A DNA stretch of 64,000 nt from a virus (IMGVR_UViG_3300032038_000051:12740-76739); one strand, 5' to 3'. Shown: positions 1,228 to 63,023, counted from the first letter of the stretch. The notes: a model not told the origin generated them from the sequence alone. Translations and numbers: made by a program.

Positions 1228-1528
1228 GGAGGCCATCCGCACGCTCGCCGAGGCGAGCGAGAAGATGCAGAGGATGCTCGACCCGCACGATAGCGGTGCC
1301 GTCATGTACGTCGCCGGCGTCAGCTTCGCCGCGGAATGGCTGCGCGAGGCGACCTCCGACGACGCGGAGGAGGTTAGCCCAGACGAGCTCGCCGAGGGCG
1401 TGATGGGGACGGTGCAGGCGTGCGCGCCGCTCGTCGGCATCATCGACGCCCTCGCGGCGCTCGACGGCAAGAAGCTCGGCAAGGACGACTTGGCTAAGCT
1501 CGCCAGCACGCTCAAGGACATGGCATGA
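1217..1528 (+). CDS. hypothetical protein, tandem paralog of 898..1227
   Basis: GTG start giving VKAKEAIRTL..., similar N-terminus and acidic C-terminus to the upstream gene. Confidence 0.5.
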   Translation: MKAKEAIRTLAEASEKMQRMLDPHDSGAVMYVAGVSFAAEWLREATSDDAEEVSPDELAEGVMGTVQACAPLVGIIDALAALDGKKLGKDDLAKLASTLKDMA

Positions 1529-2451: not shown

Positions 2452-2590
2452 ACCAATTGGCATGGTTTGGCAGGCATGGCACGGTCCGGCGGGGCATGGC
2501 GTGGCTTGTCCAGGCACGTCGAGGCAAGTCGCGGACGCAGGTTCATCTGGCGCGGGACACTTCCGCGCCTTTCGTTTAGGAGGAAGCAAC

Positions 2591-3778
2591 ATGGGACAGC
2601 TTGCAAGAAAGACCAGGGAAACTCAGGTCCAGCGGCAGCAGGCGAGGCCGCAGGACGGCATAGCGGCGATGCTCAGGGACAGGTGGCCGCAGATACAGGC
2701 GGTGATGCCGCGCCACATGAGCAGCGAGCGGCTCTTCCAGCTCGCGGTGTCCTCGATCAACCACACGCCGCAGCTCCTCGAGGCCACGCCCGAGACGATA
2801 CTCGCTTGCGTGATGAAGTGCTCCGCGCTCGGCCTCGAGCCGTCGGCGGTCGACGGTCTCGGGAGGGCCTACATCCTCCCATACCGCAACCGCAAGGCGG
2901 GCATAGTCGAGGCGCAATTCATTTTAGGTTATAAAGGCATGCTCGAGCTGTGCAGGAACTCCGGCGAGCTGAGGAGCATCGAGGCGAGGGTCGTGCACGA
3001 GGGGGACGTGTTCGAGTTCGAGTACGGCCTCAACGAGACGCTGCGGCACGTCCCGTGCGCCAACGGCGGGAAAATGACGCACGTCTACTGCGTGGCGAAG
3101 TTCAAGGACGGCGGGCATTACATCGACGTTATGACGAAGGACGAGGTGGACGCGATACGCAAGCGCTCCAAGGCGTCGCAGAGCGGCCCGTGGGAGACCG
3201 ATTACGAGGCGATGGCGCGAAAGACCGTCATCCGCCGCGCGTTCCCGTACCTGCCGGTGTCCGTCGAGGCGCAGGAGGCTGCCGCGTCCGACGAGACGAC
3301 CCCCGACTACGGCGGCGTGCTCAACCCGGTCATCGAGGTCGCCGACGCCGTCGTGACAGACGCCGCGCCCGAGCAGCCCGCCGGTCCGACCGACGAGGAG
3401 AAGGCCGAGCTCCGCAAGCTCACCATCGGATGCGTCGCGGTGGGCGTCGCGGAGCAGGACGCCAAGAGGCAGCTCTTCGCCCTATGGCGCGAGGGTGGCA
3501 TGGACGCCGCGCGCTCCTACGTGCAGGGCCTCGCAGACGATGCTGCCGTCGATTCGCTCGTCGAGAGGTGCGTGGCGTCAGGCTACGACCGCGACGACAC
3601 CAAGACGTGGCTCCTCGGCATCCGCTCCGCGCAGGGCATGGACGCCGCGAGGTCCGAGGCCGAGCGCATCATCGCCGAGGCAGCGGCCAACGCCGAGGCC
3701 AGCGGCGTCGACGCGGAGACGGGTGAGGTCGTGGACGCGGTCGTCGGCGACCTCGCGAGCGAAGACATCGCTTTTTAG
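2591..3778 (+). CDS. recT: RecT-family single-strand annealing recombinase
   Basis: GYKGMLELCRNSGE and VMTKDEVDAIRKRS signatures of RecT; GGAGG RBS before ATG 2591; paired with the exonuclease. Confidence 0.85.
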   Translation: MGQLARKTRETQVQRQQARPQDGIAAMLRDRWPQIQAVMPRHMSSERLFQLAVSSINHTPQLLEATPETILACVMKCSALGLEPSAVDGLGRAYILPYRNRKAGIVEAQFILGYKGMLELCRNSGELRSIEARVVHEGDVFEFEYGLNETLRHVPCANGGKMTHVYCVAKFKDGGHYIDVMTKDEVDAIRKRSKASQSGPWETDYEAMARKTVIRRAFPYLPVSVEAQEAAASDETTPDYGGVLNPVIEVADAVVTDAAPEQPAGPTDEEKAELRKLTIGCVAVGVAEQDAKRQLFALWREGGMDAARSYVQGLADDAAVDSLVERCVASGYDRDDTKTWLLGIRSAQGMDAARSEAERIIAEAAANAEASGVDAETGEVVDAVVGDLASEDIAF

Positions 3779-32864: not shown

Positions 32865-33122
32865 GAGACCCCGGCGGGCGGTCGAGGCCGCCCGCCATCG
32901 GAGGGAGGCAACGAATGGCACACGGAAGGGCATGCGTATCGACGCCCGAGGACTTCGTCCGCAGGGACACGACGTCGATGCCACGCGCCGACAACCCGGA
33001 GGACCGCATGCGTGCCCGCGTGACGCGCGGAGGGGCCGCGTCGCGCGAGATTCCCGAAGGCGCGGACAATCAGCCCGAGTCGGTACTCGATGGCCGCAGA
33101 CGCCGCGAGAACGCGCCGGACG

Positions 33123-40977: not shown

Positions 40978-41052
40978 CGCGGGGTAGAGTAACGGTCACT
41001 CGGCAGCCTCATGAGCTGCTACATGCCGGTTCGAGTCCGGCCCCCGCGACCA
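40978..41052 (+). tRNA. tRNA-Met (anticodon CAT), elongator-type or Ile2-like
   Basis: Cloverleaf folded by hand: acceptor CGCGGGG/CCCCGCG, D stem GAGT/ACTC, anticodon stem GCAGC/GCTGC with loop CTCATGA, T arm GCCGG-TTCGAGT-CCGGC, encoded CCA; C1-G72 paired; G at position 37 is unusual. Confidence 0.7.
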
Positions 41053-41053
41053 A

Positions 41054-41129
41054 GCCCGAGTAGCTCAGCTGGCAGAGCGGCTGCCTAGTAAGCAGCGGGT
41101 CACGGGTTCGATTCCTGTCTCGGGCTCCA
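41054..41129 (+). tRNA. tRNA-Thr (anticodon AGT)
   Basis: Acceptor GCCCGAG/CTCGGGC, D stem GCTC/GAGC, anticodon stem GCTGC/GCAGC with loop CTAGTAA, T arm ACGGG-TTCGATT-CCTGT, encoded CCA. Confidence 0.65.
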
Positions 41130-41143
41130 TGTCACACCCGTAC

Positions 41144-41231
41144 GGAGGCGTGGCAGAGCGGCAATGCAGCTCCCCGCTAAGGAGTACACGTCCGCCGACG
41201 TGCGTAGGTTCGATCCCTACCGCCTCCGCCA
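41144..41231 (+). tRNA. tRNA-Ser (anticodon GCT), type II with long variable arm
   Basis: Acceptor GGAGGCG/CGCCTCC, 3-bp D stem, anticodon stem GCTCC/GGAGT with loop CCGCTAA (C at position 33), long variable arm ACACGTCCGCCGACGTGCGT, T arm AGG(T)TCGATCC, encoded CCA. Confidence 0.65.
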
Positions 41232-41236
41232 TGAAC

Positions 41237-41310
41237 AGGCCCTTGATGTAACGGCAGCATGACGGTCTCCAAAACCGTCCGTGGGGGTTCGAGTCCCTCA
41301 GGGCCTGCCA
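41237..41310 (+). tRNA. tRNA-Trp (anticodon CCA)
   Basis: Acceptor AGGCCCT/AGGGCCT, anticodon stem ACGGT/ACCGT with loop CTCCAAA, T arm GGGGG-TTCGAGT-CCCTC, encoded CCA. Confidence 0.7.
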
Positions 41311-43907: not shown

Positions 43908-44930
43908 TCATTTTCGCGACGCCTCGTGCGTGACGGTTACCGCGTCGGTGCCGCCGTTCACGAAGGTGGGCATCACCCACCTCAGGACGAGCTCTCGCTT
44001 CTCCGGCTCGGAGCGCGGCCCGGTCCAGTAGTGGTGCCAGTGGGCGGCCCGGACGTGCGGCCTTACGGTCCTGTCTCCCTCCGTGCCGCCTTCGCCGACG
44101 TACCTGACCTTGGCGGCCCCTATCGCCCTCCCGACGCGCCTGCCGACCGCGTGGATGGTGGACTCGCAGCGCCCCTTGCGCCTCGACTTGCCCGACGGGC
44201 GGTACTCCACCTCCTGGTCGCTGTTGTCGGCGACCACGTACAGCAGGTGGCTCAGCACCTGGTTGTAGTGCTCGCGCAGCATGCGCTCGTAGTCCCTCGC
44301 GAACGTCACGTAGGCGTCGCGCGACCCGTTCACGCGCCTCGCCTCCGCCAGGTCGAACTCCATCGCCTCCGATATGACCTCGCCGAGCGTGTCGACGTCG
44401 AGGTTTATGGACATGACGCTCCTCGGCTGCCCGTCAACGAGCTGCATGATCGACACGCATTCGGCCCCGTCCTCGAACGCCAGGGCCTCGGCCCTTATCG
44501 TGCGGTCCGTCCACGCGAAGAACCCGCTGGTCATGGCGACGCTGCCGTCGCTCATGCTCATGGGCATCCGAGCCTCCACGAACAGGCACGGGTACGGCAG
44601 CCTCCTGAGCATCCCGACTGGCATCGAGTCGGGGAAGCTCGTCTTGAGCAGCTCGCTCGTGAGCGCCTTATCGAACCTGTACACGTGCCTCGACGACTGC
44701 CAGTTCGCCCAGAGGGACACGTCCTCGCAGAGCAGGTACGTCGGGTCGTTCGATATGCGCCACGCCCTCTCCGCGTCGCTGATCCTCCCGTTCACCTCGA
44801 CCGACCTCGCCTCTATGGCCTCCTGGCTGAACGAGAAGCACGGCCCCGTCACGCGCGCGAGCTGCGGATGCGCCTTGAGCAGCTCGCTGACGTGCCTGTC
44901 GGCCACCGTGGCCGGTCGCCTATGACTCAT
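43908..44930 (-). CDS. hypothetical protein (340 aa) with His-rich C-terminal motif
   Basis: Long ORF with balanced composition; RPHVRAAHWHHYWTG segment is a possible HxH/Tyr metal-binding motif; no family confidently recognised. Confidence 0.55.
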   Translation of the reverse strand: MSHRRPATVADRHVSELLKAHPQLARVTGPCFSFSQEAIEARSVEVNGRISDAERAWRISNDPTYLLCEDVSLWANWQSSRHVYRFDKALTSELLKTSFPDSMPVGMLRRLPYPCLFVEARMPMSMSDGSVAMTSGFFAWTDRTIRAEALAFEDGAECVSIMQLVDGQPRSVMSINLDVDTLGEVISEAMEFDLAEARRVNGSRDAYVTFARDYERMLREHYNQVLSHLLYVVADNSDQEVEYRPSGKSRRKGRCESTIHAVGRRVGRAIGAAKVRYVGEGGTEGDRTVRPHVRAAHWHHYWTGPRSEPEKRELVLRWVMPTFVNGGTDAVTVTHEASRK

Positions 44931-45378
44931 CCCCGAGCCTCCTCTCCACCGACCTCGCGTACACCATCTGCCCCCTCGGGAGCCTGACGCCGTCGAGCTT
45001 GCCCTCCTTCAGCAGGGCGTACACCCTCTGCGTGGACACGCCGAGCGCGCCAGCCGCGTCCCTGACCGTCATGGTGCGGAAGTCGCCCTTCTGCATCCAC
45101 TCCAGGACGTACGGCCCCTGCTTCACGACCGGTATGTTGTCGGTCGTGCAGTCGTTGGCGTCTATGTCCGCCCCGAGGGCCGCTATCATGTCACCCACCA
45201 CCGGCTTTGACAGCAGGCCGTGCTCGGCCGCAAGCCTCGTGAGCTCGACCATCCCGCGCCCCGGCGTGAGCTGGTAGTCTCCGACCCTTGCGTCGTTCAA
45301 CCTTATGCCCACGTTTCGCAGCTCGTTCACCAGGTAGTGGTTGTACCTGGCGAGCGCCCTTATCGTGTCATCTCGCAT
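44920..45378 (-). CDS. DNA-binding protein with excisionase/MerR-type HTH
   Basis: C-terminal MTVRDAAGALGVSTQRVYALLKEGKLDGVRLPRGQMVYARSVERRL; start placed at ATG 45378 with GGGAGGA RBS, because the upstream ATG at 45444 lies inside the repeat array. Confidence 0.55.
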   Translation of the reverse strand: MRDDTIRALARYNHYLVNELRNVGIRLNDARVGDYQLTPGRGMVELTRLAAEHGLLSKPVVGDMIAALGADIDANDCTTDNIPVVKQGPYVLEWMQKGDFRTMTVRDAAGALGVSTQRVYALLKEGKLDGVRLPRGQMVYARSVERRLGDES

Positions 45379-45405
45379 GCGTCCTCCCAACAAACGATGA
45401 GTTAC

Positions 45406-45455
45406 TTGCAATGCAATTGTACTCTGGTTGCAATAGGGTTGCAAGAGGGTTGCAA
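45406..45455 (-). promoter_or_regulatory. array of palindromic TTGCAA hexamers with 11-bp phasing (operator/iteron-like)
   Basis: TTGCAA at 45406, 45428, 45439 and 45450 (cttgcaatgcaattg ... ggttgcaatagg gttgcaagagg gttgcaaatga) immediately upstream of the HTH gene start. Confidence 0.5.
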
Positions 45456-45658
45456 ATGAACTGACGGCATGGCAAAACTCGTTCCAGACGGGGCTAGAGA
45501 AAGACGGACCCCTCGGCGCGGATGCACGCGAGGGGTCACACCCCGCTTACGCGGGGAACAGTCGCCTCCCGAAAAGCGTACGATACTGCTTAACGGGTCA
45601 TTCCCGCCTCGGCGGGCAATGGCGATGCCTGCATTATGCCCCGACGTCGAGCCAACGT

Positions 45659-47591: not shown

Positions 47592-47709
47592 GTCTCCTCC
47601 TCAAAAAAAGGGGCCGCCCGGATGCTCGGACGGTCCCAATCGACCTTTATCTTCCTGCGAATGCGAACGAGCCGCCCGGTTGCGTCGTCGTGCGGCTCGG
47701 CCTGGCCGA

Positions 47710-48338: not shown

Positions 48339-49037
48339 TTATTCTGCCAGATAGTTCTCTATGCTTGCGAGCCGCCCGCGCAGCTCCTCCCGCTCGTCGT
48401 GCCTCAGTCTTGAGAGCGACGGCTTGATCTCCAATATCGCCGCCTGCTCCAGGTCGGCGAGCAGGCTATCCTCGTCCAGCGCGTGACCTGTCGCGCTCAC
48501 GAACGCACTGTCGAACAGCCAGTTGATCTTCATCTCGAGCAACCTTGTTTGCGCGTCTGCCCGTGCCTTCTCGTGAGCTTTGCGTGCGAGGGCGTCTTGT
48601 CGTTTCATGGTTGCGGCCTTGGCCTTCGGGGTCAGCAGCCGCAGTGCGTTGTCGACCTCGTTTCCCTTTGCGGCGTTGCAGCGCTTGCACATTGTCTGGA
48701 AGTTATCCAGACTGTCTTTTCCGCCACGACTGACGGGGATAATGTGATCCTTCGTCATTAGCACTTGGTCGTCCGAGAACAGCTCAAAGTGCCTGCGCTT
48801 CGACTTGTCGTCACCTACCAACACGAAGTGCGTGCCGACTCTGCCGCACTTGGTACACGTGAATCCCTTCTGGAAGAAGGTCTTATATCGCATGGAGTGG
48901 ACGTAGACTTGGAACCCGTCCACGTCAACCGAAAGCTTCTTCTCCCCACGAGGGATGGTCGGTGTCATAGCAGCGTGCTCGCCGATGATTGCGAGTACCT
49001 CGTCCGGTGTGTACTCCTTCTCTTCCATGACTTCCAT
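48339..49037 (-). CDS. HNH endonuclease
   Basis: CTKCGRVG...LMTKDHIIPVSRGGKDSLDNFQTMCKRCNAAKGN is a canonical HNH motif. Confidence 0.8.
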   Translation of the reverse strand: MEVMEEKEYTPDEVLAIIGEHAAMTPTIPRGEKKLSVDVDGFQVYVHSMRYKTFFQKGFTCTKCGRVGTHFVLVGDDKSKRRHFELFSDDQVLMTKDHIIPVSRGGKDSLDNFQTMCKRCNAAKGNEVDNALRLLTPKAKAATMKRQDALARKAHEKARADAQTRLLEMKINWLFDSAFVSATGHALDEDSLLADLEQAAILEIKPSLSRLRHDEREELRGRLASIENYLAE

Positions 49038-49046
49038 TCATCGCTC

Positions 49047-49244
49047 CTAAACCTTGTACCTGAGGTCGACGGGTACCTCGGTGCCGTCAACCTCGTCCAA
49101 CCGTATTGTAAACCTTCCCTCCTTATGGAATGCCTCGTGCGCCTTTCGACACAGCTTCTCGAGGTCGCCATCCCTCATGGAGAACGTGACCTCGAGAAGC
49201 TTTCCGTCCCAGTTCGTCGCCTTCGCCTGGTGTACTCCCATCAT
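49047..49244 (-). CDS. hypothetical small protein
   Basis: ORF. Confidence 0.5.
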   Translation of the reverse strand: MMGVHQAKATNWDGKLLEVTFSMRDGDLEKLCRKAHEAFHKEGRFTIRLDEVDGTEVPVDLRYKV

Positions 49245-49246
49245 CT

Positions 49247-49858
49247 CTAGAGTTTGATGCCGAACCTGGCTGCGACGCTTCTCAAGGCGCCGTCCTTGTA
49301 GTTGTACGCCTTGTCGATCTGCTTCCTCAGTTCCTCCTCTAACAGCTCCCTCGTCAGGTCGAACTTACCGTTCCAGCAGTTGTCCCTGCCGGTCGACACG
49401 ACCACTACCTCTGCGAGGGCGTCCGTGATGGGCTTCCAGTGGTAAGTGACGAAGTGCCCGAGCTTATCGGCGCAGTCGTAGTAGCTTATGCTCGACACCA
49501 TTGCCTTGTCGCCGAGTACATCGCTAGGCCCTTCGTCCGTGCTTCCCTCGCATGGGACGCACTCGTGCCCCGTCAGCATCCTCAGGAATCGGCGGCGCCA
49601 CTCGTCGTCCTGCTCGTGTTCGACGAGCTCTCGCTGAACCATTATTTTCTGGTTCAGGAGCGGCGTGCTCTTCGGCTCATCGTCCTCGAACCAAACGCCG
49701 AGGCCACCAAATCCCTCTGTCTCGTCGTCTATGAACCCGACGTTTTCGCTGCAGTCGTCGAGTTTGTCAGAATACACACATGCTGTGACGTTCTGCTTCA
49801 TGTCGAACCCGCCGTCATTGAGTCGGTTCAATTCGTCGAGCATCTCTTCGTAGGTCAT
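49247..49858 (-). CDS. hypothetical acidic protein
   Basis: ORF; GGGAGGCAA RBS. Confidence 0.55.
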   Translation of the reverse strand: MTYEEMLDELNRLNDGGFDMKQNVTACVYSDKLDDCSENVGFIDDETEGFGGLGVWFEDDEPKSTPLLNQKIMVQRELVEHEQDDEWRRRFLRMLTGHECVPCEGSTDEGPSDVLGDKAMVSSISYYDCADKLGHFVTYHWKPITDALAEVVVVSTGRDNCWNGKFDLTRELLEEELRKQIDKAYNYKDGALRSVAARFGIKL

Positions 49859-49878
49859 CTTTGCCTCCCAAGTCTAAC

Positions 49879-49892
49879 GCACCCGCAGGTGC
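49879..49892. promoter_or_regulatory. start-associated GC hairpin GCACC-CGCA-GGTGC
   Basis: Member of the recurring GGGCACC(N3-5)GGTGCCC palindrome family placed just upstream of the RBS of leftward genes. Confidence 0.45.
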
Positions 49893-49947
49893 TGCCAATG
49901 CCCAGCAGGGGAGGCTCTCCCGAGGAAGAGCCCCATACTGACGGGCA

Positions 49948-50628
49948 TTACTCGCCCGGGTTCTCCGTCCAGTCAGACGCCGTGGACACCGCCCACAGCA
50001 CGGGCATGGCGTCATTGCCGCTCTCCTCGCCGAACACCATCGACGAGTGCTCGTAGTCGGCGAGCAGGTCGGTCGTCCACGACTCGTCCGCCCCGTACGT
50101 GAGTGCCAAATACTCGATGTGGTCGGCGAGCGTGTCGCTGTCGAGCGGAATCACGTCGACCGACCGCTCTCCGTTGCTCCACTCGTTGTACTCGACCACC
50201 ATGCCGAGCGTGGGGGAGTAGACCGCCCCGCTTGATACGAGCATGTCGAAGAACTTCTCCGCACGGGCGCGCAGCACCTCGTTGCCCTCGTGAGACGCAA
50301 CTACATCGTCGCGAACAGCCTTCAAATCCGTCATTTCCAATCCCCCCTCTAGCAAGTGATCGAAACCTGAGTGCCAGTCGTCGATGCACTTATTCGTGAA
50401 TGCTTTCATCGCTTCGCGCAGAACCTCGACGAGCTGGTCCTGGTAGCCTTCCCTTTCCATGAAGTCCTCGAACCTTGAAAAGACGCCGCCCTTGCAGCTT
50501 CGGTCGGCTGCCTTCTCTGCCACGTTTTCGAGGAACTTGTCCCACCTGATAGCGTCGCTGCACTCAACGAGCGCGTCGACAAAGTCGAACGTGTCTACCA
50601 CGTGCTCGAACACGTTCCTTTCCGTCAT
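49948..50628 (-). CDS. hypothetical acidic protein (226 aa)
   Basis: ORF; AAGGAGGAAG RBS. Confidence 0.55.
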   Translation of the reverse strand: MTERNVFEHVVDTFDFVDALVECSDAIRWDKFLENVAEKAADRSCKGGVFSRFEDFMEREGYQDQLVEVLREAMKAFTNKCIDDWHSGFDHLLEGGLEMTDLKAVRDDVVASHEGNEVLRARAEKFFDMLVSSGAVYSPTLGMVVEYNEWSNGERSVDVIPLDSDTLADHIEYLALTYGADESWTTDLLADYEHSSMVFGEESGNDAMPVLWAVSTASDWTENPGE

Positions 50629-50647
50629 AACTTCCTCCTTATGAATT

Positions 50648-50665
50648 GGGCACCTGCAGGTGCCC
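50648..50665. promoter_or_regulatory. start-associated GC hairpin GGGCACCTGCAGGTGCCC (perfect palindrome)
   Basis: 18-bp perfect inverted repeat about 18 nt upstream of the start codon at 50628. Confidence 0.5.
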
Positions 50666-50670
50666 GTCCC

Positions 50671-50910
50671 TTATTGTGCCTTGCGAGAAAACCTGCGGAC
50701 CTGCTCGTCAATCTCATCTCTACTTGCGCAGACAGTCGACGAGAGCCTGCGAACCCTCTCGGCGACCGCTTCTTTCTTGACGCAGGCGATCTCGTCGTAC
50801 GCCTTTTCGATCCTGCTGTCATTCGCCCAAAGCAACGTTCCGAGCGCATGCAGCGCGTAGTTGAGCTGGTGCAGCAGATTGTCAAGCTCGTTTTCGCTCA
50901 GTCGATCCAT
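50671..50910 (-). CDS. hypothetical protein
   Basis: ORF; TTAAGGAGG RBS. Confidence 0.5.
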   Translation of the reverse strand: MDRLSENELDNLLHQLNYALHALGTLLWANDSRIEKAYDEIACVKKEAVAERVRRLSSTVCASRDEIDEQVRRFSRKAQ

Positions 50911-50928
50911 GATGCCTCCTTAAACCAA

Positions 50929-50946
50929 GGGCACCCGCAGGTGCCC
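50929..50946. promoter_or_regulatory. start-associated GC hairpin GGGCACCCGCAGGTGCCC
   Basis: Hairpin followed (on the - strand) by TTGGTTTAAGGAGG and ATG 50910. Confidence 0.5.
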
Positions 50947-50957
50947 TAATCCGTTCC

Positions 50958-51434
50958 TTACCAAGATGCCATGTATGAGAAGTACACATCCGGCGGGGTC
51001 TCGTCGAGCAATTCCTCAATCACACGCGCCGTGCGTCTCACCTCCCACAAATAAAGCCAATCGTATGACTGGCTCCCGAACCAATACCCGCTCATTACTG
51101 GAAGAAGTCTCTCGGCGAGGCTCGTGTCTGCCAGGGCCTCACGCTTGACGGGGACACTTACGTACTCCCCATCCGCCACTCCGTCTCGGAAGTCGTCGAC
51201 TAGCACGGTCTCCGACTCGCCTATCTCCTTGCACACTGCCCCGAGGCTGGCGAGCTGCGTCCTGCTGACGTCGTACCACACGCCGTTCTCGCACTCACCG
51301 TTGCACACGTTGCGGACGAACCAGCCGTGGATCTGGTTCGCCTTTCCCCACTCGAGGGCGTAATCGTAGCAGGTGAACGGGCCGTCATCGTCGACTCCGT
51401 CCCACGCGGTTTCAAGGTACATGTCAAGTCCCAT
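50958..51434 (-). CDS. hypothetical protein
   Basis: ORF. Confidence 0.5.
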   Translation of the reverse strand: MGLDMYLETAWDGVDDDGPFTCYDYALEWGKANQIHGWFVRNVCNGECENGVWYDVSRTQLASLGAVCKEIGESETVLVDDFRDGVADGEYVSVPVKREALADTSLAERLLPVMSGYWFGSQSYDWLYLWEVRRTARVIEELLDETPPDVYFSYMASW

Positions 51435-51447
51435 TACCACTCTCCGT

Positions 51448-51753
51448 TCACTCGTACCAGTAGCTGTTCTCGCTGACCTCAATCTCGTGGTGCCACCGTA
51501 CGTCCTCGTCGACTCCGTCGTAGACCAGCGCGTGCATCTCTGCCTCGCCTTGGCCGTCGTGAGTCTGCCCGACCACTGCGAGCTGCAATATCTTGCCGTC
51601 GTCCGTATGGAACTCGACGAACACCTCCGAGTAGTTGTCCGTGTCGCTGCCGACGTAGGCGACGACCTTGCCGCCCACGGCGTCGACGCTTATGGCCGGC
51701 ATACTGATACCAGCCTTCTTTATTCCGTTCTCGTGGATCTCTATGCCATTCAT
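51448..51753 (-). CDS. hypothetical acidic protein
   Basis: ORF. Confidence 0.5.
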   Translation of the reverse strand: MNGIEIHENGIKKAGISMPAISVDAVGGKVVAYVGSDTDNYSEVFVEFHTDDGKILQLAVVGQTHDGQGEAEMHALVYDGVDEDVRWHHEIEVSENSYWYE

Positions 51754-51813
51754 GTCTGTTCCTCCTCCATGTTCTCGTACTCGTACCTGCTTGCCAGCAA
51801 TTGGTTGGGCGGT

Positions 51814-52077
51814 TCACACCCATGTGACGCCGAGGTTTTCCTTCACCCACTCCCATGCGGTTCGCGTGCGGTCGAAACCCCAGAAATCAGGCTCGCTAGG
51901 CAGCTCGAACAGGTGGCGCATGTCTTGATAGATGTGGACGACGCATTGGCCGTCGGGGTCTAGGTCGGAAAGCATGTTCAGTTCTCCGACCCGCGCCAAG
52001 CTCCCGTCGTCAAGCTCCGAGTAGATGACGGTGTGCCCCGTAGCGCTGTTGATGTTCCTCATTGGAACTATTCTCAT
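51814..52077 (-). CDS. hypothetical protein
   Basis: ORF with internal start chosen (MRIVPMRNINS). Confidence 0.45.
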   Translation of the reverse strand: MRIVPMRNINSATGHTVIYSELDDGSLARVGELNMLSDLDPDGQCVVHIYQDMRHLFELPSEPDFWGFDRTRTAWEWVKENLGVTWV

Positions 52078-52081
52078 GCCC

Positions 52082-52381
52082 CTACTCCTCTCCGAAGTTC
52101 TCGTCCTCGTACCTGCTTGCCAGCAGCGAACCGAGCAGGTACCCGAATCCGTCGTTCCATGCCGTGTCATAGGAGTCCTGCATACTTATCACCCACGCCA
52201 TGAGGTCGGTGATCTCGCTGTCTCCAAGCGCGAGATAGTCCATCGCGTCTGCAGAAGCCCTGTCCCAGCACGAGTTCTCGTCATAGAACTCGTGCTCATA
52301 CCAGAGTGCAACGTCCTCACGCTCAAGGATTGTTTTGTATATCTCGTTGGCGACTTCCTCGCCGTGCCTTGCGTCAAACAT
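52082..52381 (-). CDS. hypothetical acidic protein
   Basis: ORF. Confidence 0.5.
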   Translation of the reverse strand: MFDARHGEEVANEIYKTILEREDVALWYEHEFYDENSCWDRASADAMDYLALGDSEITDLMAWVISMQDSYDTAWNDGFGYLLGSLLASRYEDENFGEE

Positions 52382-52391
52382 GTTGGTCTCC

Positions 52392-52946
52392 TTATCCGCG
52401 CAGCTCTACGCCGTACTCATTCAGTACCCTTGCCGCTATATAGCGGTCATATGAGGGATAGTCGCTGATCCTGAAGTAGAACGGTCCGTCCCATTCGTTG
52501 ACGAGGCCGAGCGACACCGCGGCTTCGAACACCTCGTCCCCGTAGTTACAGGCCCCGTCCGCGAACCCGTCCCCACTAGGCGGAAGCTCATCGAGGGAGA
52601 ACGTGTCAAGTGCGAGCTCGCAGTCGAACACCTCATCCCTGACGTAGTTCGCGTAGTCTCTCACCCAAACTTGGAGCTCGGTGCTTGACTCGACTCTCAC
52701 TCTTGTAGGACTCACGACGTTGCTTGCCATGTTCGCTGCGATAATTCGCGATATGGCCTCGGAGATTTCGTTCTCCGACTCCTCTATGACGTGGGCGATG
52801 ACGTCTGGTGTCAGGTTATGTGCGTGGTACTCGCTTGCGATGTAGCCGCCGTCTATGTCGATGTGGTAGGTCGGGAAGTATCCCTTCTTGCCATTGTCGT
52901 TGGTGTATCCTGCCAAGGTAGCGTACTCCTCTAGCTTAAATTCCAT
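52392..52946 (-). CDS. hypothetical acidic protein (184 aa)
   Basis: ORF. Confidence 0.55.
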   Translation of the reverse strand: MEFKLEEYATLAGYTNDNGKKGYFPTYHIDIDGGYIASEYHAHNLTPDVIAHVIEESENEISEAISRIIAANMASNVVSPTRVRVESSTELQVWVRDYANYVRDEVFDCELALDTFSLDELPPSGDGFADGACNYGDEVFEAAVSLGLVNEWDGPFYFRISDYPSYDRYIAARVLNEYGVELRG

Positions 52947-52996
52947 GCTTGTCTCCTTTCGTTAGACAATCGCCCAGCGGGGGATGCTCTGTCCTC

Positions 52997-53221
52997 CTAG
53001 ACGTTCTCTACTTCTCTTATGACCCAGTGGACGTCGTCTATGAACGCCTCGCGCTCGTAGACGTTGGACTCTGCATGCCATCCGCAGCCGAGCAGGCGGC
53101 AACGCTCTTCCTCGAGCTGGGCCAGCATGTCACGACGCGCCGCATCGAAGGTCTCGAAGCAGCGCGTCCCGTCGTTGTCGAAGCGTCCGTAGCGGACGCA
53201 TATCACCACGTAGCCGTTCAT
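52997..53221 (-). CDS. hypothetical protein
   Basis: ORF. Confidence 0.5.
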   Translation of the reverse strand: MNGYVVICVRYGRFDNDGTRCFETFDAARRDMLAQLEEERCRLLGCGWHAESNVYEREAFIDDVHWVIREVENV

Positions 53222-53649
53222 GGCTCCCTCGCAATGACCTTGTTCTTTCCGAGCAGCTTGTCAATCTCCCGCATCGCAATGCTCAGGTCTATGCCGTCCT
53301 CGTACAGATCGTGTGCGAGCTCTGCGATGGTTCCGCAGTCGTAGCCGTCGTCGGCGATGCGCCATACGCCGTCCGTATGGTACTCGTCCTCCATGCACTC
53401 GTTCGTGCTGTGGTATCCCGTGTAGAGGGCATCGCCGAACTGGAATCCGTAGACGGTGTCCTCCTGATAGTGGTTGCCGAGCTCGTAGAACCCGATGAGG
53501 CAGCCGATGCAGCCAGCCTCGTAGTCAACGTCGTCATCGTCCGTCTCCCTGATCGAAAAGATGATCTCGCCGTCATAGTAGAGGCCGCCGTCGCACTGGC
53601 CGGCGGTCTTTGGGTCGTACTTCGTGGGCTTCCAGTCGAAGTTATGCAT
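53218..53649 (-). CDS. hypothetical highly acidic protein (143 aa)
   Basis: ORF; ETDDDDVDYE... Asp/Glu/Tyr-rich. Confidence 0.55.
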   Translation of the reverse strand: MHNFDWKPTKYDPKTAGQCDGGLYYDGEIIFSIRETDDDDVDYEAGCIGCLIGFYELGNHYQEDTVYGFQFGDALYTGYHSTNECMEDEYHTDGVWRIADDGYDCGTIAELAHDLYEDGIDLSIAMREIDKLLGKNKVIAREP

Positions 53650-53651
53650 AC

Positions 53652-54008
53652 CTACTCCTCATGTCCGATGCTAATACCCGTTTCGCTCAGCGAGCATGGC
53701 TCCCACACCTTGACTGTTTGTTCACAGGTCACTTTCCCGTCCTTTATGTCCACCGTGACCTCGTTGAAGTCCTCATCCTCGAAGCGATACCACGCATGGA
53801 GGACAAGCCCCTTAACCTCGTCAAGAGGCATGCCGAACAGCTCTACGAGGTCTTCCAAGATGTGCTCCGCATAGCCCCCGTCTCCTTCGTACTCGATTTC
53901 GTAATGGTCGTCTTCGTCCTGCACGAGTTTGTAGTCCCGGCTCTCCGGGTTTATTTTTGTGTCCTTCGGGAAGCTCGCACCGTAGCTCCAACTGCTCCAC
54001 ACGCTCAT
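53652..54008 (-). CDS. hypothetical acidic protein
   Basis: ORF; AAAGGAG RBS. Confidence 0.55.
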   Translation of the reverse strand: MSVWSSWSYGASFPKDTKINPESRDYKLVQDEDDHYEIEYEGDGGYAEHILEDLVELFGMPLDEVKGLVLHAWYRFEDEDFNEVTVDIKDGKVTCEQTVKVWEPCSLSETGISIGHEE

Positions 54009-54073
54009 TGCCGTGCTCCTTTCTCGTTAGCCAAATGCCAGGCATGTAGGGCACCACATGGGTGCCTCTTCTC

Positions 54074-54352
54074 TTAGTAGACGAACGTCTTGCTATCTTC
54101 GCTGTCGAAGATGAGGTACTTCTCGTAGTACCTCCAGTCGCATCCGTCTCCGTCGACCAGCACGCCCTGGTCTTCGCTGACCTTGACGGTGAATGCCCCT
54201 TTGTCTGCGCCGTACTCGATCGCCCAGTCGCTCCGGTGGGTGCCGATGAGCTCGACCATGGCTTCGTACGCCTCTTGTTGGGTCTCGAACACGCCCTTGA
54301 GCGTGCTTTGCAGGGATTCGCCGTCCCCGCTGTTGCAGATAAGAACAAACAT
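54074..54352 (-). CDS. hypothetical protein
   Basis: Internal start MFVLICNSGD chosen; the upstream part of the ORF looks like a GC-frame artefact. Confidence 0.45.
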   Translation of the reverse strand: MFVLICNSGDGESLQSTLKGVFETQQEAYEAMVELIGTHRSDWAIEYGADKGAFTVKVSEDQGVLVDGDGCDWRYYEKYLIFDSEDSKTFVY

Positions 54353-54354
54353 CG

Positions 54355-54597
54355 TTACTCCTCCGTTATGTCCCACTCGCGATCCGGCACCTCGCACTCT
54401 ATTGGAGTACCCTCGGGCGGTACGAGCCTTAACGCACCCTCCCAGACTCCATCGGGAACTCCTCCGTCTGGAAGCACTTGATACGGCTCTCCGAGAAGGA
54501 CGTCGTGAGCCTTGTCCCACGCGGCATCCTCGTCTGCCGCCTCTACCTCGAACGTGTACACCGCTGTCTCGTAGCACTTGACCTTGTACTTCGCCAT
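54355..54597 (-). CDS. hypothetical small acidic protein (MAKYK...)
   Basis: ORF; possible paralog of 54600..54842. Confidence 0.5.
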   Translation of the reverse strand: MAKYKVKCYETAVYTFEVEAADEDAAWDKAHDVLLGEPYQVLPDGGVPDGVWEGALRLVPPEGTPIECEVPDREWDITEE

Positions 54598-54599
54598 GT

Positions 54600-54842
54600 C
54601 TACACCTCCTCGTTGTCGGCAAGCTCGTCCTCAGGCGCGATGCCTTCTACTTCTGTCTTTATGTACTTGGCTCTGTATCCCTCGTAGTCGTTGTCGAACG
54701 AGTCGATGAGGTCCTCCCGCCACTCGTCGTTGTACTTGAGTTCCTCCGCTATGCGCAGCGCGTCCTCCTCTGACTCCGCTGCGATAACCCTTCCCGCCGT
54801 GAGGGTCACGTCGTACGAAACGTAAAACTTCTTCTTCGCCAT
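54600..54842 (-). CDS. hypothetical small acidic protein (MAKKK...)
   Basis: ORF; N-terminus resembles the adjacent gene. Confidence 0.5.
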   Translation of the reverse strand: MAKKKFYVSYDVTLTAGRVIAAESEEDALRIAEELKYNDEWREDLIDSFDNDYEGYRAKYIKTEVEGIAPEDELADNEEV

Positions 54843-54914
54843 GCCTGTCTCCCTTCGTTGGCCCCAGTGCCAATCAGCCCGCAGGCTCGTCTCCAAGCCT
54901 GCGGACGGGTGACG

Positions 54915-55388
54915 CTATTGGTAGGCGTATTCCTCACCTTCTACCCAATGGAAGTTCGGCATGTCCTTCAAGTCCTCGCAGGACTTCGGCTGTAGCCCGT
55001 CCCAGTCGTTCGGGAAGTACTCCATGTCCCCCTCGGTGGTGACGAACACCGAGATGTCCATGTCGAATAGGTCCATGTGCAGGTTGTACAGAGTCCCGTC
55101 CTCAGCATGTCCGAGGACGGTGATCCCGGGCATGTCCTCGTAGTCCCACAGCGCCCCGGCCATCGGGTCGTAGTCGTAGACCCGCTCGACGCTGAGGCCC
55201 AGATACACCTCCCAACCCCAGGTGCCGCCCGTGCACTCGCCGCGGCTGAGTTCCTCGACGAGCCCGTCGATGGCCTCCTCGACCTCTTCCGGGGCCTCGG
55301 GGAAGAGCGCCTCGAAGGTCTCGTGGCTAACGTCGGTCGTCATGAGGACTTCCCCGGTTATGTTGTCCGTTATCTTGTAAGCGACCAT
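54915..55388 (-). CDS. hypothetical acidic protein
   Basis: ATG after TTAAGGAGGAAAAA RBS. Confidence 0.55.
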   Translation of the reverse strand: MVAYKITDNITGEVLMTTDVSHETFEALFPEAPEEVEEAIDGLVEELSRGECTGGTWGWEVYLGLSVERVYDYDPMAGALWDYEDMPGITVLGHAEDGTLYNLHMDLFDMDISVFVTTEGDMEYFPNDWDGLQPKSCEDLKDMPNFHWVEGEEYAYQ

Positions 55389-55422
55389 TTTTTCCTCCTT
55401 AACAAACAGGGCACCTTCGGTG

Positions 55423-56280
55423 CTATACCGCCTTCGCCATCCACATTTCGTAGATGGCGCCGTAGTCAACGCCGCTCATCATTGCAAGATGCTCGAACAT
55501 CCGCTCCCTCACGAGCGAGTCCCCGACTCCCATCACCTCGTACACGTCGCATCCGCTTGCCAGTCGGTCGTAGAGCTGCTTGAAGGTGACGTCCGCATTG
55601 AGCTCGAAGCCCAGAGGGTCGGTCGGATACTCGCTCAGGTACCAGTCCCGGATGTGGGTGAGCTTGCGGAACTCGTCGTCATCTGCCGCCAGAAGCTCGC
55701 AGTCCAGCGGGTTGACCAGCTTCGTCGCGACCCTGGCTCGCAGCTCGTGGCACCGCCACTGACGCTTTCCCGGCTTCTTTGTTAGTTTCACGGTGCATCC
55801 CGCAAGGCTCATGCCGCCGCAGGTGACGCCGCTGTCCTCTGGTATGTGCCACAGCACCGACTCGCCGGGGGAGACGTTCTTGAACGCGGTGGGCGAGTCC
55901 TTGATGCGCAGGTTCTCGCGGCAAGCCTCGCGCCATGCCTTGGCATGCCCATCGCTGTCGTATTCGTCCGTGCAGGGGCACACCTCGTCGGCGAGGTCGA
56001 GGATTGCCTTCGGGCAGCCCTTCTCGTACGGGCTGCAGGTGTCGGTCATGTCCTTGTACCTGAACTCGTCGGCTCCCCTCGCAACGTGGATCAGGCTCAC
56101 GACCAGCCACGCCCTGCCGTCCCTCTCTCTGACGACGCCGTACCAGACGCCGCCCGACATAGTTGATTTGATGACCGTCGAGCCCCACGACTCGAACTCG
56201 CGGTCCATCGTCTTCTTTTTGTTGACACTACCGTTCTTGTTGAACTCGCAGTAGTGCAGGTCCATTCCCGTCCAGCCCAT
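55423..56280 (-). CDS. hypothetical protein (~285 aa)
   Basis: Start at MGWTG; Cys-containing. Confidence 0.5.
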   Translation of the reverse strand: MGWTGMDLHYCEFNKNGSVNKKKTMDREFESWGSTVIKSTMSGGVWYGVVRERDGRAWLVVSLIHVARGADEFRYKDMTDTCSPYEKGCPKAILDLADEVCPCTDEYDSDGHAKAWREACRENLRIKDSPTAFKNVSPGESVLWHIPEDSGVTCGGMSLAGCTVKLTKKPGKRQWRCHELRARVATKLVNPLDCELLAADDDEFRKLTHIRDWYLSEYPTDPLGFELNADVTFKQLYDRLASGCDVYEVMGVGDSLVRERMFEHLAMMSGVDYGAIYEMWMAKAV

Positions 56281-56282
56281 CT

Positions 56283-56786
56283 CTATGCCGCCTTTCTCGG
56301 GTCTCCGCTTGCCAATGCCTTCTGGTAGTGCTCGTTCGCCATACGAATCGCCTCGTCCCCCGTCTTGTCGGTGGGGAACACGTAGGTCTTGTTCTCGAAC
56401 TTGAACCCCGCCGCCAGGTACGCTTCGTGCCTGTGGAGCGCGTACCACACGAGCTCCTCCAAGTACTCGATGCCCAGCGTCTCTCCGATCGCGCACAGCT
56501 CCTTCCAGTTGCGGCGCGGGCGCTCGTCCCCGACGTACTCGGAGTTGTGAAGCTCGTTGACGTGACAACCGTTCCAGTCCAGCTCGTCGTCGAGCTGGAA
56601 CCACATCGCCACGTACGGCCGCTTGTCCCCCTCGTCGGGACGGCTGAAGTCGGCTGGTGCCCAGTAGAGCCTAGCCTCGGTGTGATACCCGCACACCTCG
56701 CCGACGAACCGCAGCCCGTCGGCCTTCGGTGTCTCGTTGGTGCGGTAGTGGGACCAGATCCCAACGCCTTGCTTTTTCGTTGCCAT
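56283..56786 (-). CDS. hypothetical protein
   Basis: ORF; AAAGGGAG RBS preceded by a GC hairpin. Confidence 0.55.
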   Translation of the reverse strand: MATKKQGVGIWSHYRTNETPKADGLRFVGEVCGYHTEARLYWAPADFSRPDEGDKRPYVAMWFQLDDELDWNGCHVNELHNSEYVGDERPRRNWKELCAIGETLGIEYLEELVWYALHRHEAYLAAGFKFENKTYVFPTDKTGDEAIRMANEHYQKALASGDPRKAA

Positions 56787-56797
56787 TTCTGCTCCCT

Positions 56798-57055
56798 TTA
56801 ACCAAGGACGGCACCCGCCTTGCGGATGCCGTTCCTCTCCCTTATTTCGTTCAGGCCGAGCAGGCCAATCCTTCGGCCCGCCCGGCTAACTTCGACCACG
56901 AGCGCCCCGTGGTCGCGGGCGGCTACTGTTTTGATGATCCTCGCGGCCTCCCTCAGCGTGCTTGCGGACGCCACCGCTCGGCAGCGTCCGTACTTCCCCT
57001 TGCTCACCAGCTCGTAGTGGGCGGGCGACGGTTGCGAGTTGTCGAGAATTTCCAT
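56798..57055 (-). CDS. hypothetical protein
   Basis: ORF. Confidence 0.45.
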   Translation of the reverse strand: MEILDNSQPSPAHYELVSKGKYGRCRAVASASTLREAARIIKTVAARDHGALVVEVSRAGRRIGLLGLNEIRERNGIRKAGAVLG

Positions 57056-57283
57056 TTAGATCACCTCGATTATCATGTGTGGTCCAATGTGGCCCGTTCG
57101 CCTCGGGTACACCACGTACCCGTCCTTCACTTGGCAGCTCCGTCGTACGACGTATCCGCGGGCCCGGAGCTCGTCGGCGAGTTCCTTGCGGTCACAACCG
57201 AGGAACATCTCCATAACGCCGCCGATGATGCACTCGCCTCGCTGCTTGACGATGTTGTCGACCTGCTTGATCGCGTTGTCCAT
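57056..57283 (-). CDS. hypothetical protein
   Basis: Internal start MDNAIKQ. Confidence 0.45.
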   Translation of the reverse strand: MDNAIKQVDNIVKQRGECIIGGVMEMFLGCDRKELADELRARGYVVRRSCQVKDGYVVYPRRTGHIGPHMIIEVI

Positions 57284-57297
57284 CTGCCCATCCTTTC

Positions 57298-57516
57298 CTA
57301 TGCCCTCCAATGGGGCACTTCCTTCTCGATGCCGTTGTGCTCGCAGAACCACGGCAACGGCACGGAGTTCGTGACCACACCGTTCCGTATCCCGAGCACT
57401 TGGAACACGCTCGGGTCTTTGGCACCCAACAGAAACTTCGCCGTTCGCTTGACCAGTTCGGCGTCGCCGGTCGGACGGAGCCATAAGGTCTCGCCGTCAG
57501 TGATTGCGTACTTCAT
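57298..57516 (-). CDS. hypothetical protein
   Basis: Start MKYAITDG after GAAAGGAGAG RBS. Confidence 0.5.
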   Translation of the reverse strand: MKYAITDGETLWLRPTGDAELVKRTAKFLLGAKDPSVFQVLGIRNGVVTNSVPLPWFCEHNGIEKEVPHWRA

Positions 57517-57586
57517 GACTCTCCTTTCTCTCGGGCAAGTACCCGTCTTGGAAGGCTGGGGGATTCCCAGCCCTCGGGGTCGGGCG

Positions 57587-58891: not shown

Positions 58892-59230
58892 CTAGTACCA
58901 GAGCAGTTCGACTGCGTGATTCCCGCGCTCGTCTATCAACACCGGGTACAGCCCCGGGTACTCCCACTTGAGGCCGTACGCCACAAGCTCGTTGTCAAGC
59001 TTCTTGCCGAGGGCGGCAAGCAGCTCTCCCTCGCGCCCGTGATGCTCCCACTGCCACTTGCTGTAGTGGCCGGAGCCGTTGGCGCGCATCTCACCCCAAC
59101 GGAAGTACCGTTTGCAGTAGCGGACGCACCGGTTGTACATGTGCTTGGCGGCGAACTCGTCGCCGTCCTTGCGTGACGCGAGAGCGCGGATCTGATGCTC
59201 ACGGCACGTCTTGATTTCGTTGAATGTCAT
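58892..59230 (-). CDS. hypothetical protein
   Basis: Start MTFNEIK. Confidence 0.5.
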   Translation of the reverse strand: MTFNEIKTCREHQIRALASRKDGDEFAAKHMYNRCVRYCKRYFRWGEMRANGSGHYSKWQWEHHGREGELLAALGKKLDNELVAYGLKWEYPGLYPVLIDERGNHAVELLWY

Positions 59231-59679
59231 TTCGTATCCCTCCTGAAATACTCGTCGCCCACGACCTTTCGGGGCTCGCATGCCATGAACCTTCGGTGTA
59301 TCTCGTCTAGGATTCGATGGAGGTTCTCGTCCGTAGCCTCGAGAAGCCAGTCGAAGTCGATGACCGGGCGCACCGTCTGGTGCCCGTTCCTGTCGGGCCT
59401 CCCTCGGTACGTCATCTCCTGCGGGTTATAGGCCCCGAAGCAGTTTCCCTTGGTGTCGTAGACGTAGGTGTCGATGTGCCACCACGTTCTGAAGCTTCCA
59501 TCGACTCGTCCGTTGCGCTTCCAGATGTAGCCTAGGCTGTGGCTGTGCTTGAAGTCCATCTCGCAGGTGTGGATGTCCACGAGCATGGCCTCGCCACGCT
59601 CGTTGGTGTCGGTGCAGTCTAGCCACATGTGCGTGGCGTCGCTGCGATATTCCTTGTGAAGCTTGAACTTGTCGTGCAT
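59227..59679 (-). CDS. hypothetical protein
   Basis: Start MHDKFKLH; ATGA-coupled. Confidence 0.5.
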   Translation of the reverse strand: MHDKFKLHKEYRSDATHMWLDCTDTNERGEAMLVDIHTCEMDFKHSHSLGYIWKRNGRVDGSFRTWWHIDTYVYDTKGNCFGAYNPQEMTYRGRPDRNGHQTVRPVIDFDWLLEATDENLHRILDEIHRRFMACEPRKVVGDEYFRRDTK

Positions 59680-60155: not shown

Positions 60156-60221
60156 TTCTTCTCCTTTTTCGTAGGCCAGTACCCTCATAGCCCGCGCCCC
60201 GCAGGACGCCGGCCTGAAGAT

Positions 60222-61302: not shown

Positions 61303-61415
61303 CGTTTCTCCTTCTTTTGCGGCTCGTACGGAATCCCTCACCTACGCCCACCCTGGCCGCGAACGGCTAGGCGACTTACGCCGGGATGGGGTCGGATTGT
61401 CGGGCGTGGATTTTT

Positions 61416-61768: not shown

Positions 61769-61859
61769 TTTTCTTTCCTCCTTTAACTAGGTTGTTCCGG
61801 GCTCGTTTGCCCAGCGGTGAACGCGCGGCAACCCGTGCGCTCGTCGGCGGGTAAGCGAA

Positions 61860-61877
61860 GGGCCTCCGAAGAGGCCC
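61860..61877 (-). terminator. hairpin GGGCCTC-cgaa-GAGGCCC downstream of the secreted-protein gene
   Basis: 7-bp GC stem with tetraloop; weak T-run. Confidence 0.35.
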
Positions 61878-62604: not shown

Positions 62605-62738
62605 ATGAACCTCCCTTCAAGCCGTTGTTCCCCTAGCTCGTTTGTTACCCTACGAAAAAGGCACCCATGCAATGCACAGGCGCCCTTTACGTAAGGGGGA
62701 CGGCGCGGAGGCCGTCCCTGGATTTTTGGTGTGCTCGT

Positions 62739-63023
62739 TTACTTGTTGTCGCCGGGTGGGATCAAAAACTCGTACCCGTCCGACCTGTCCCTCAAAATCA
62801 GGTCGTACCCTAGCGCGTCGGCGACATTCGCAAGTACGTCGCTTCTTGGACTCGATTTCGTGCGGTTGATCATGGTGCCGACGTACGATGCCTTTTGCCC
62901 CATCATGACGCTCGTGTGCGCCGCCGTGGTACCAGCTCGTTTTATCATATTGCGTATGATGGCGCCCTCATTCATCTTCACTCCCAACTCGTTGCGTGAG
63001 ACACCATCATATCTTATACTCAT
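62739..63023 (-). CDS. XRE-family HTH transcriptional regulator (candidate repressor)
   Basis: IKRAGTTAAHTSVMMGQKASYVGTMINRTKSSPRSDVLANVADALGYDLIL HTH; lower GC than its neighbours; faces the palindrome-rich region. Confidence 0.55.
   Translation of the reverse strand: MSIRYDGVSRNELGVKMNEGAIIRNMIKRAGTTAAHTSVMMGQKASYVGTMINRTKSSPRSDVLANVADALGYDLILRDRSDGYEFLIPPGDNK

Follow-up and report, generated by a model that had tools for sequence, protein, structure and literature searches.

GC-rich hairpins that directly follow stop codons and carry a short or interrupted U-rich tail were reportedly found in a phage early region in a 1995 Nucleic Acids Research study, and Tuerk et al., in PNAS in 1988, are said to have described extra-stable C(UUCG)G and GNRA hairpins in the intercistronic regions of T4 mRNA. 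Other repeats lie close to the start codons of phage genes. The start-associated sequence (SAS) is a well-conserved, asymmetric 13-bp motif (GGGATAGGAGCCC-like) located on the ribosome-binding site (RBS), 3-7 bp before the start codon, while the extended start-associated sequence (ESAS) is an imperfect 17-bp inverted-repeat pair, 4-13 bp apart, for which the authors favoured DNA binding because departures from the repeat fail to support RNA pairing (PMC3203893). The promoter-early stem-loop (PeSL) cassettes of T4-type phages are ~100 bp long and contain a consensus sigma-70 early promoter with an AT-rich upstream element (PMC2839356, PMC4122927). Here, we describe recurrent palindromes between small leftward genes in IMGVR_UViG_3300032038_000051:12740-76739, a 64,000-nt stretch (hereafter the window) of a large uncultured phage, comprising its replication and early region. 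The palindromes are real, junction-specific hairpins with a U-rich tail that are under structural selection on the sense strand. On balance, and with moderate confidence, we read them as intercistronic, terminator-like RNA hairpins that would serve a polycistronic early mRNA as weak attenuators and/or 3´ stabilisers, with termination and stabilisation themselves being predicted activities.

The leftward array of the window, from 43.6 kb to 64 kb, contains ~45 small genes, nearly all without a family assignment, and the gene map used for this block agrees with independent gene calls on the identical ENA contig. The exact inverted repeat GGGCACC-N3-5-GGTGCCC was found in the window only at 50648-50665 and 50929-50946 (0.00 expected). 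A sequence-only reading of this DNA had listed near-identical copies at 49879, 54049 and 55411 as well, but these have in common only a 5-6 bp core. Matches to that core, GCACC-N3-6-GGTGC, numbered six (49879, 50650, 50931, 54051, 55411 and 59370) against 0.57 expected, a count reached in none of 100 shuffles. Five of the six are between leftward genes, in the gaps that make up 10.6% of the block (binomial p ~7e-5), with the 55411 site sharing one base with the stop codon of the gene upstream. The sixth is inside a single gene, as judged by the homologue in the related contig L122, and may reflect either chance or a role that is not assigned here. Another site, at 56809, had been taken for a degenerate copy but is in fact a strong 11-bp hairpin, in which the outer stem of the family (GGCAYC/GGUGCC) is joined to an inner extension. 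The idea of a non-random hairpin family associated with gene junctions is thus borne out. Equal frequency in coding DNA had been named beforehand as the outcome that would speak against it; instead, the motif is biased toward intergenic DNA both in the window and in related phages. By comparison, for any hairpin with a stem of 7 bp or longer, the density in intergenic DNA is only 2.6-3.7 times that in coding DNA, and the signal therefore comes from a specific family and not from hairpins at large. Paralogy of the flanking genes was also considered as a source of the repeat, and no paralogue pair was found at E<0.01.

The hairpins of the family, together with other hairpins and predicted terminators of the window, are listed in Table 1. 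At five sites, 17-22 nt separate the 3´ end of the stem from the start codon, within the 8-35 nt given by the sequence-only reading, but at 54049 this spacing is ~39 nt. Similarly, the RBS contexts are as it described for 50929 (cttggtttaaggagg) and 55411 (gtttgttaaggagg), while that at 56808 (ccttggttaaagggag) is similar but is not AAGGAGG.

Table 1. Hairpins and predicted terminators in the window, with sequences on the sense strand, covariance-model scores, folding energies and positions relative to neighbouring genes.
Feature	Coordinates	Strand	Sequence	Score (bits)	Energy (kcal/mol)	z	Position and remarks
s1	49875..49897	-	core GCACC-ugcg-GGUGC at 49879-49892	20	-11.3	-2.3 (-2.25)	weak family member; second hairpin of the 89-nt gap after the stop at 49948; 20 nt 5´ of ATG at 49858
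s2	50648..50665	-	GGGCACC-ugca-GGUGCCC	26.4	-14.5	-2.8	5 nt past stop of gene 50671-50910; 19 nt before ATG at 50628
s3	50928..50947	-	AGGGCACC-ugcg-GGUGCCCU	29.9 (best match)	-18.1	-3.8	C(UGCG)G tetraloop; 10 nt past stop of gene 50958-51434; 17 nt before ATG at 50910
s4	54048..54069	-	AG-a-GGCACC-caugu-GGUGCC-CU	19.3	-11.5	-2.3	4 nt past stop of gene 54074-54352; ~39 nt before ATG at 54008
s5	55411..55423	-	GCACC-gaa-GGUGC, tail CCUGUUUGUU	16.9	-8.0	-0.35	weak; listed as terminator-like; overlaps TAG stop of gene 55423-56280; 22 nt before ATG at 55388
s6	56808..56832	-	ACGGCAUCCGC-aag-GCGGGUGCCGU	22.5 sense, 18.6 antisense	-25.3	-4.8	11 bp; one U-G wobble, valid on sense RNA only; within last codons of open reading frame (ORF) 56798-57055; 21 nt before ATG at 56786
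Sixth core match	59370..59383	-	GCACC-agac-GGUGC				inside ORF 59227-59679
Rightward-gene hairpin	32873..32896	+	GGCGGGCGGU-cgag-GCCGCCCGCC	21.9 on +, 9.1 on -			stop-hairpin-RBS-ATG layout as in the family; stem sequence different
Intergenic hairpin	54877..54906	-					11 bp; unrelated sequence; between genes 54915-55388 and 54600-54842
Intergenic hairpin	49911..49934	-	GGGGCUCU...AGAGCCUC				unrelated sequence; directly past stop at 49948, upstream of s1
Predicted canonical intrinsic terminator	47603..47633	-	CCGUCCG-agcauc-CGGGCGG, then CCCC + seven U		-18.9		abuts RBS GAGGAGG and ATG at 47591; family layout with full U-tract
Predicted canonical terminator, family-like stem	62654..62690	-	GGGCGCC...GGGUGCC, then UUUUU	11.1	-25.3	-6.5	

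Homologues of genes 55423-56280 and 56283-56786 led to related contigs (L122, L123, L132-134 and L138-141), which also carry same-strand arrays of small genes in an order that is mosaic relative to the window; L128 and L129, in which gene 55423-56280 has distant homologues, differ in architecture and were left out. An 18-mer identical to that of s3, GGGCACCUGCGGGUGCCC, is present at 10453-10470 in L123, at a non-homologous position 9 nt before the RBS of an ArdC-like gene. Other copies in the relatives include GAGGGCAUCC/GGGUGCCCUC, GGGCAUCC/GGAUGCCC, GAGGGCGCU/AGCGCCCUC, GAGGGGUGC/GCACCCCUC and GAGGGGCAC/GUGCCCCUC. Using a covariance model, R1, built from 14 aligned copies from the window and its nearest relatives, we recovered sites outside the training set at 32873-32896 in the window, 2204 and 14033 in L122 and 16733 in L123. 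In the independent loci L138, L139 and L140, the model detected 13 sites at E<1, of which 11 are intergenic and one is in the 3´ tail of an ORF; as only 11.5% of these loci is intergenic, 11 of 13 corresponds to p ~3e-9. The hairpins are therefore a recognisable RNA-element family in a small clade of uncultured phages. Broader searches added little: the 18-mer of the hairpin, used as a pattern against IMG/VR, gave at least 120 unrelated single matches and was uninformative, the longer module and the conserved non-coding patterns had no match in IMG/VR, one metagenome scan returned three bacterial chance matches only, and with Rfam 15 at the gathering score the only matches in the window were four tRNAs, with no hairpin family among them. 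No near relatives of the window were found in INPHARED (including by tblastn) or, by protein search, in IMG/VR. In the related loci the spacers between the Shine-Dalgarno (SD) sequence and the ATG are often AACGA, and in L140 many upstream genes end in a TAGCGA or TAGCAA context.

Across the 14-copy alignment, changes on both sides were seen at seven of the nine stem pairs, a number reached in none of 500 shuffles. Since the aligned copies had been chosen as hairpins, comparisons of homologous junctions provide the less circular evidence. At 12664 in L123 and 10377 in L122, the flanks are common and the stems differ by A-U to G-C and U-G to U-A changes, while at 7842 in L123 and 5694 in L122 the downstream RBS and first codons are common and three stem pairs differ on both sides. 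The junction 5´ of the homologues of gene 56283-56786 carries four different stems (s6 in the window and those in L132, L138 and L140); three of the four hairpins (those of the window, L132 and L138) are embedded in C-terminal codons, with unrelated peptides being encoded. Loops across the family range from 3 to 8 nt in length, and their sequences are not conserved between members. G-U pairs number 18 in the sense-strand folds, and for 18 of 26 members folding is more stable on the sense than on the antisense strand. Tetraloops (n=18) comprise eight UNCG (seven UGCG and one UUCG) and four GNRA loops, all on the sense strand, with none in the reverse-complement classes (p ~1e-12). When full-length sequences are folded, the hairpin forms on its own, with the SD mostly free of pairing. 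The combination of variable loops, G-U pairs and sense-only UNCG and GNRA loops indicates an RNA hairpin on the sense transcript rather than a duplex-DNA operator, for which such features are meaningless; they are typical of selected RNA hairpins.

The regions after the stems also have a terminator-like character. In a canonical intrinsic terminator, a 7-9-nt U-rich tract directly follows the stem (PMC3993855). The GC-rich hairpin on the sense strand that is characteristic of such terminators is present here. The sequence-only reading had concluded that T-tracts are lacking, which is strictly correct for classical long tracts, but the 8 nt after the stems are enriched for U. This base accounts for 44.5% of these positions (57/128), compared to 17% for the sense-strand background and 21% at the matching position upstream of 103 hairpin-less genes (p ~1e-9). 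The contiguous U runs are short (UUU, UUUG or AUU), and s5 is the only site in the window with at least five U in 8 nt. Two members in L122, at 14033 (AAGGGCGCUUUC-gaaau-GAGAGCGCCUU, followed by a U run) and at 2204, have full U-tracts and, like 62654-62690 in the window, are predicted to be canonical terminators. As full-tract and U-poor members coexist, the family appears to span a continuum from full terminators to tail-less hairpins.

We suggest the following scheme. The leftward transcript of the small early genes, most of them orphans and some with anti-defence roles, would carry short, very stable stem-loops, each positioned between the stop codon of one gene and the SD of the next, with a GC stem, a short U-rich tail and, often, an extra-stable UNCG or GNRA tetraloop as cap. 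Forming co-transcriptionally, these stem-loops could act as weak or conditional intrinsic terminators (attenuators) and, after termination or cleavage, as a 3´ barrier to exonucleases. Attenuation and 3´ protection together would set the relative amounts of the cistrons while leaving the downstream RBS unpaired. The sequence likeness of the copies would derive from common descent or recombination of junction modules and not from recognition by a DNA-binding protein. Suboptimal U-tracts are compatible with terminator function, which NusG assists (PMC3993855).

Several observations weigh against this scheme. Hairpins are dense (~7 in 7 kb, and no fewer than 15 over the 20 kb of the leftward block), and since no conserved promoters are found between them, efficient termination at all of them is unlikely; we found neither internal promoters nor antitermination that would spare the distal genes from efficient terminators. 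The tails of s1, s2 and s4 have just 2-3 U, and for purified mycobacterial RNA polymerase a U-tract is required for termination (PMC3993855). The predicted fold of s5 is no better than that of its shuffles, and the percentage-paired figure for the alignment is partly circular given how the copies were picked. Finally, the spacing from stem to start codon (mode 17-25 nt) is tighter than that from stop codon to stem (0-96 nt), which could suggest a role in translation initiation.

Such a role, with the hairpin being part of the initiation region of the downstream gene, is a live but secondary possibility, which we consider rather unlikely. The hairpin might insulate the RBS from upstream structure, stabilise the 5´ end after processing or serve as a standby site or translational operator. 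Consistent with this, ~19 of 31 members have the stem 17-25 nt from the start codon, the SD is left free by the folds and, the hairpin has moved together with the downstream RBS or gene at two mosaic junctions; a match links L122 7454-7664 and L123 10019-10230, and the L123 7842 and L122 5694 sites share the hairpin, RBS and first codons, although both flanking genes differ. However, a terminator tail of ~8 nt abutting the SD predicts this spacing too, and the terminator at 47603-47633 is packed in this way. In addition, some members are 36-167 nt from the next start codon, and the unconserved loops make an RNA-binding protein that reads the loop unlikely. We also considered pairing of the 3´ arm with the SD as a switch. 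It looks suggestive at s3 and the L138 sites but, over 18 members, was no better supported than for arm-shuffled sequences (mean z -0.38, 2/18 significant), and this candidate was rejected.

It is more doubtful still that the hairpins are primarily portable junction cassettes resembling PeSLs, that is, short-homology recombination sites that shuffle orphan early genes, with any RNA function being secondary. The hairpins s1, s2 and s3 flank genes 49948-50628 and 50671-50910, the first of which has no homologue but itself among 5.8 billion proteins (L121, the sole other contig with this gene, is 100% identical to the window). The s3 18-mer recurs at a junction in L123 that is not homologous, gene order is mosaic among the window, L122 and L123, and homology often stops at the hairpin, as for L132 and the window at 56798 and for L123 at 16740. 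Together with their RBSs, s2 and s3 form a 32-nt direct repeat (78% identity), the phage encodes RecE and RecT (1525-3778), and the PeSLs provide a precedent (PMC2839356, PMC4122927). On the other hand, the common identity is just 13-32 nt (PeSLs, ~100 nt), a conserved promoter part is missing, and the compensatory changes and sense-strand tetraloops reflect selection on RNA structure, which a pure recombination site does not need. PeSL-like shuffling is plausible as an evolutionary side effect. In a broader reading, a single conserved hairpin family (GGGCAYC/GRUGCCC, UNCG- or GNRA-capped and ending 17-25 nt from the start codon) would be the promoter-less counterpart of PeSLs in a clade of high-GC uncultured phages, a portable unit that insulates and tunes individual orphan or anti-defence genes and also supplies the short homology for RecE/RecT to swap them between genomes; we offer this only tentatively, with as little confidence as the cassettes themselves.

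Further roles put forward by the sequence-only reading fared less well. No conserved promoter accompanies the hairpins; a promoter scan gave three promoter-like sites against 4.5 expected and no motif common to the hairpin sites, with s1 alone having a promoter-like match (TTGGCA-16-TAGACT). It is very improbable that the palindromes are DNA operators, comparable to the phiC31 inverted repeats or ESAS, of a dimeric phage regulator such as the XRE-like protein encoded at 62739-63023 or the HTH_17 protein encoded at 44920-45378. The half-site GGCAYC/GRTGCC does recur in several copies and across related phages, and helix-turn-helix (HTH) proteins are encoded nearby. However, operators like the phiC31 conserved inverted repeat (CIR) have fixed spacing and conserve sequence rather than complementarity, while here the half-sites are separated by 3, 4, 4, 4 and 5 nt in the window and by up to 8 nt or more in the relatives, and many copies swap the half-site sequence yet keep complementarity. 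The U-G wobbles and the UNCG and GNRA loops are strand-specific, and no promoter overlaps the sites except for the one chance-level match at s1. Least credible of all is processing by RNase III, which normally needs a duplex of ~20 bp, as stems of 5-13 bp without internal-loop architecture fall far short of these ~two helical turns even though the position between cistrons reportedly resembles that of the early RNase III sites of phage T7.

Regarding the rest of the window, genes up to ~43.5 kb are rightward and include those for RecE-like and RecT-like proteins, a DNA methyltransferase, a sliding clamp and an RNA ligase, with a tRNA cluster (Met-CAT, Thr-AGT, Ser-GCT and Trp-CCA; 40978-41310, + strand) near the end of this block. 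A search for the host among genome contigs with RecT and the methyltransferase as queries gave no match. The exceptions with assignments in the leftward array are an AcrVA2-like protein, an HNH endonuclease, a Lar-like protein and the HTH_17 protein. The sense strand of the array is strongly purine-rich (G 33%, A 23%, C 27% and T 17% for 49000-57500). Additional junction hairpins of unrelated sequence are present in the leftward block at 57551 and 61860. The ORF at 62739-63023 (- strand, 94 aa) has an XRE-type HTH sequence pattern as judged by eye and is followed on its 3´ side by two successive hairpins, one at 62697-62718 and then the U-tract terminator at 62654-62690.

Other non-coding elements were noted nearby. 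A 280-nt regulatory region at 45379-45658 (- strand), upstream of genes 44920-45378 and 43908-44930, has a good sigma-70-like promoter (TTGCAA-17-TACAAT at 45444-45416), three direct TTGCAACC(C/A) repeats and a CAATTGCATTGCAAG palindrome. It is directly 5´ of the HTH_17 gene, which overlaps the start of the AcrVA2-like gene, an arrangement that looks like an aca/acr-type autoregulated anti-CRISPR operon. A conserved non-coding element of ~80 nt (CCGACAAYCCGAMCCCAYCC...GCGGCCAGGGT-N4-GTAGGTGAGG, without an Rfam match) is 5´ of a gene start at 61340-61410 (- strand) in the window, 3610-3690 in L122 and 4610-4690 in L123, three phages that are otherwise ~70-75% identical even in common genes; candidate roles are those of a leader, small RNA or promoter. 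A 64-nt non-coding stretch (TTACCCGCCGACGAGCGCACGG...GGGCAAACGAG) is 86% identical between 61802-61862 (- strand) in the window and 3543-3606 in L122, and in both is preceded by a hairpin, with different stems (GGGCCUC-uucg-GAGGCCC in the window and GAGGGGACG...CGUCCCCUC in L122). A second junction module, consisting of a hairpin and then (C)ATGAGGGYAYTKGCC, is found at ~60185-60215 (- strand) in the window, ~7497 and ~4620 in L122 and ~10060 and ~6650 in L123. Its ATG is annotated as a start codon in some copies and precedes the real RBS in the window; the module may be a phage-specific promoter or leader. Finally, a 40-nt direct repeat (88% identity) links 51760-51799 and 52086-52125. The second copy encodes the C-terminus of gene 52082-52381 (...LLASRYEDENFGEE). 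The first falls between genes 51814-52077 and 51448-51753, which are 60 nt apart, and is not in frame with the upstream gene; the repeat looks like the relic of a duplicated or recombined gene junction.

Early arrays of this type hold anti-defence and host-takeover genes, AcrVA2-like and Lar-like here and ArdC-like in the relatives, and the junction hairpins are a practical marker of cassette boundaries in uncultured phages. The proposed function gives a testable model for how dozens of tiny genes on one long transcript could be dosed. The hairpins also caution that a recurrent palindrome need not be a protein operator.

How does the family compare to the described systems? Like the SAS and ESAS of Cluster K mycobacteriophages and Cluster EF Microbacterium phages, the hairpins are restricted to the non-structural half of the genome and are repeated just upstream of the start codons of unrelated genes (PMC3203893, PMC7302621). 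The resemblance to these elements proposed by the sequence-only reading does not extend further. There is no SAS-like asymmetric 13-mer, as a generic SD (GGAGG or GGGAG) is all that the six sites have in common from -20 to -1, and TTGGTT(T)AAAGG is found at s3 and s6 only. The arms, unlike those of ESAS, are 5-13 bp, departures from the repeat are compensatory, and orthologous junctions pair with different sequences. As for PeSLs, a GC-rich stem-loop followed by an SD and start codon is repeated in intergenic regions among small orphan early genes and coincides with mosaic breakpoints, here insertions, deletions or replacements, and the PeSL stem-loop acts as a terminator or attenuator, the activity predicted here. 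In contrast to PeSLs, no consensus sigma-70-type early promoter is found within the unit, and the common sequence is limited to 13-32 nt. The hairpins also resemble those reportedly described for a phage early region in 1995, with U-tract versions of the same stems being present in relatives, but here termination is predicted, several copies are nearly U-less, there is about one hairpin for every two genes, and one is inside a coding sequence. With the T4 intercistronic hairpins and the repetitive extragenic palindromic (REP)-type or operon stabilisers, the family has in common C-G-closed UNCG and GNRA loops on the sense strand between cistrons and a presumed role as a 3´ exonuclease barrier or terminator. 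It differs from the T4 hairpins in that one stem family (GGGCAYC/GRUGCCC) is found across a clade of high-GC uncultured phages, with UGCG rather than UUCG as the commonest loop. The element thus belongs to a familiar phage class, that of stable intercistronic hairpins and weak terminators, and is not a new regulatory system.

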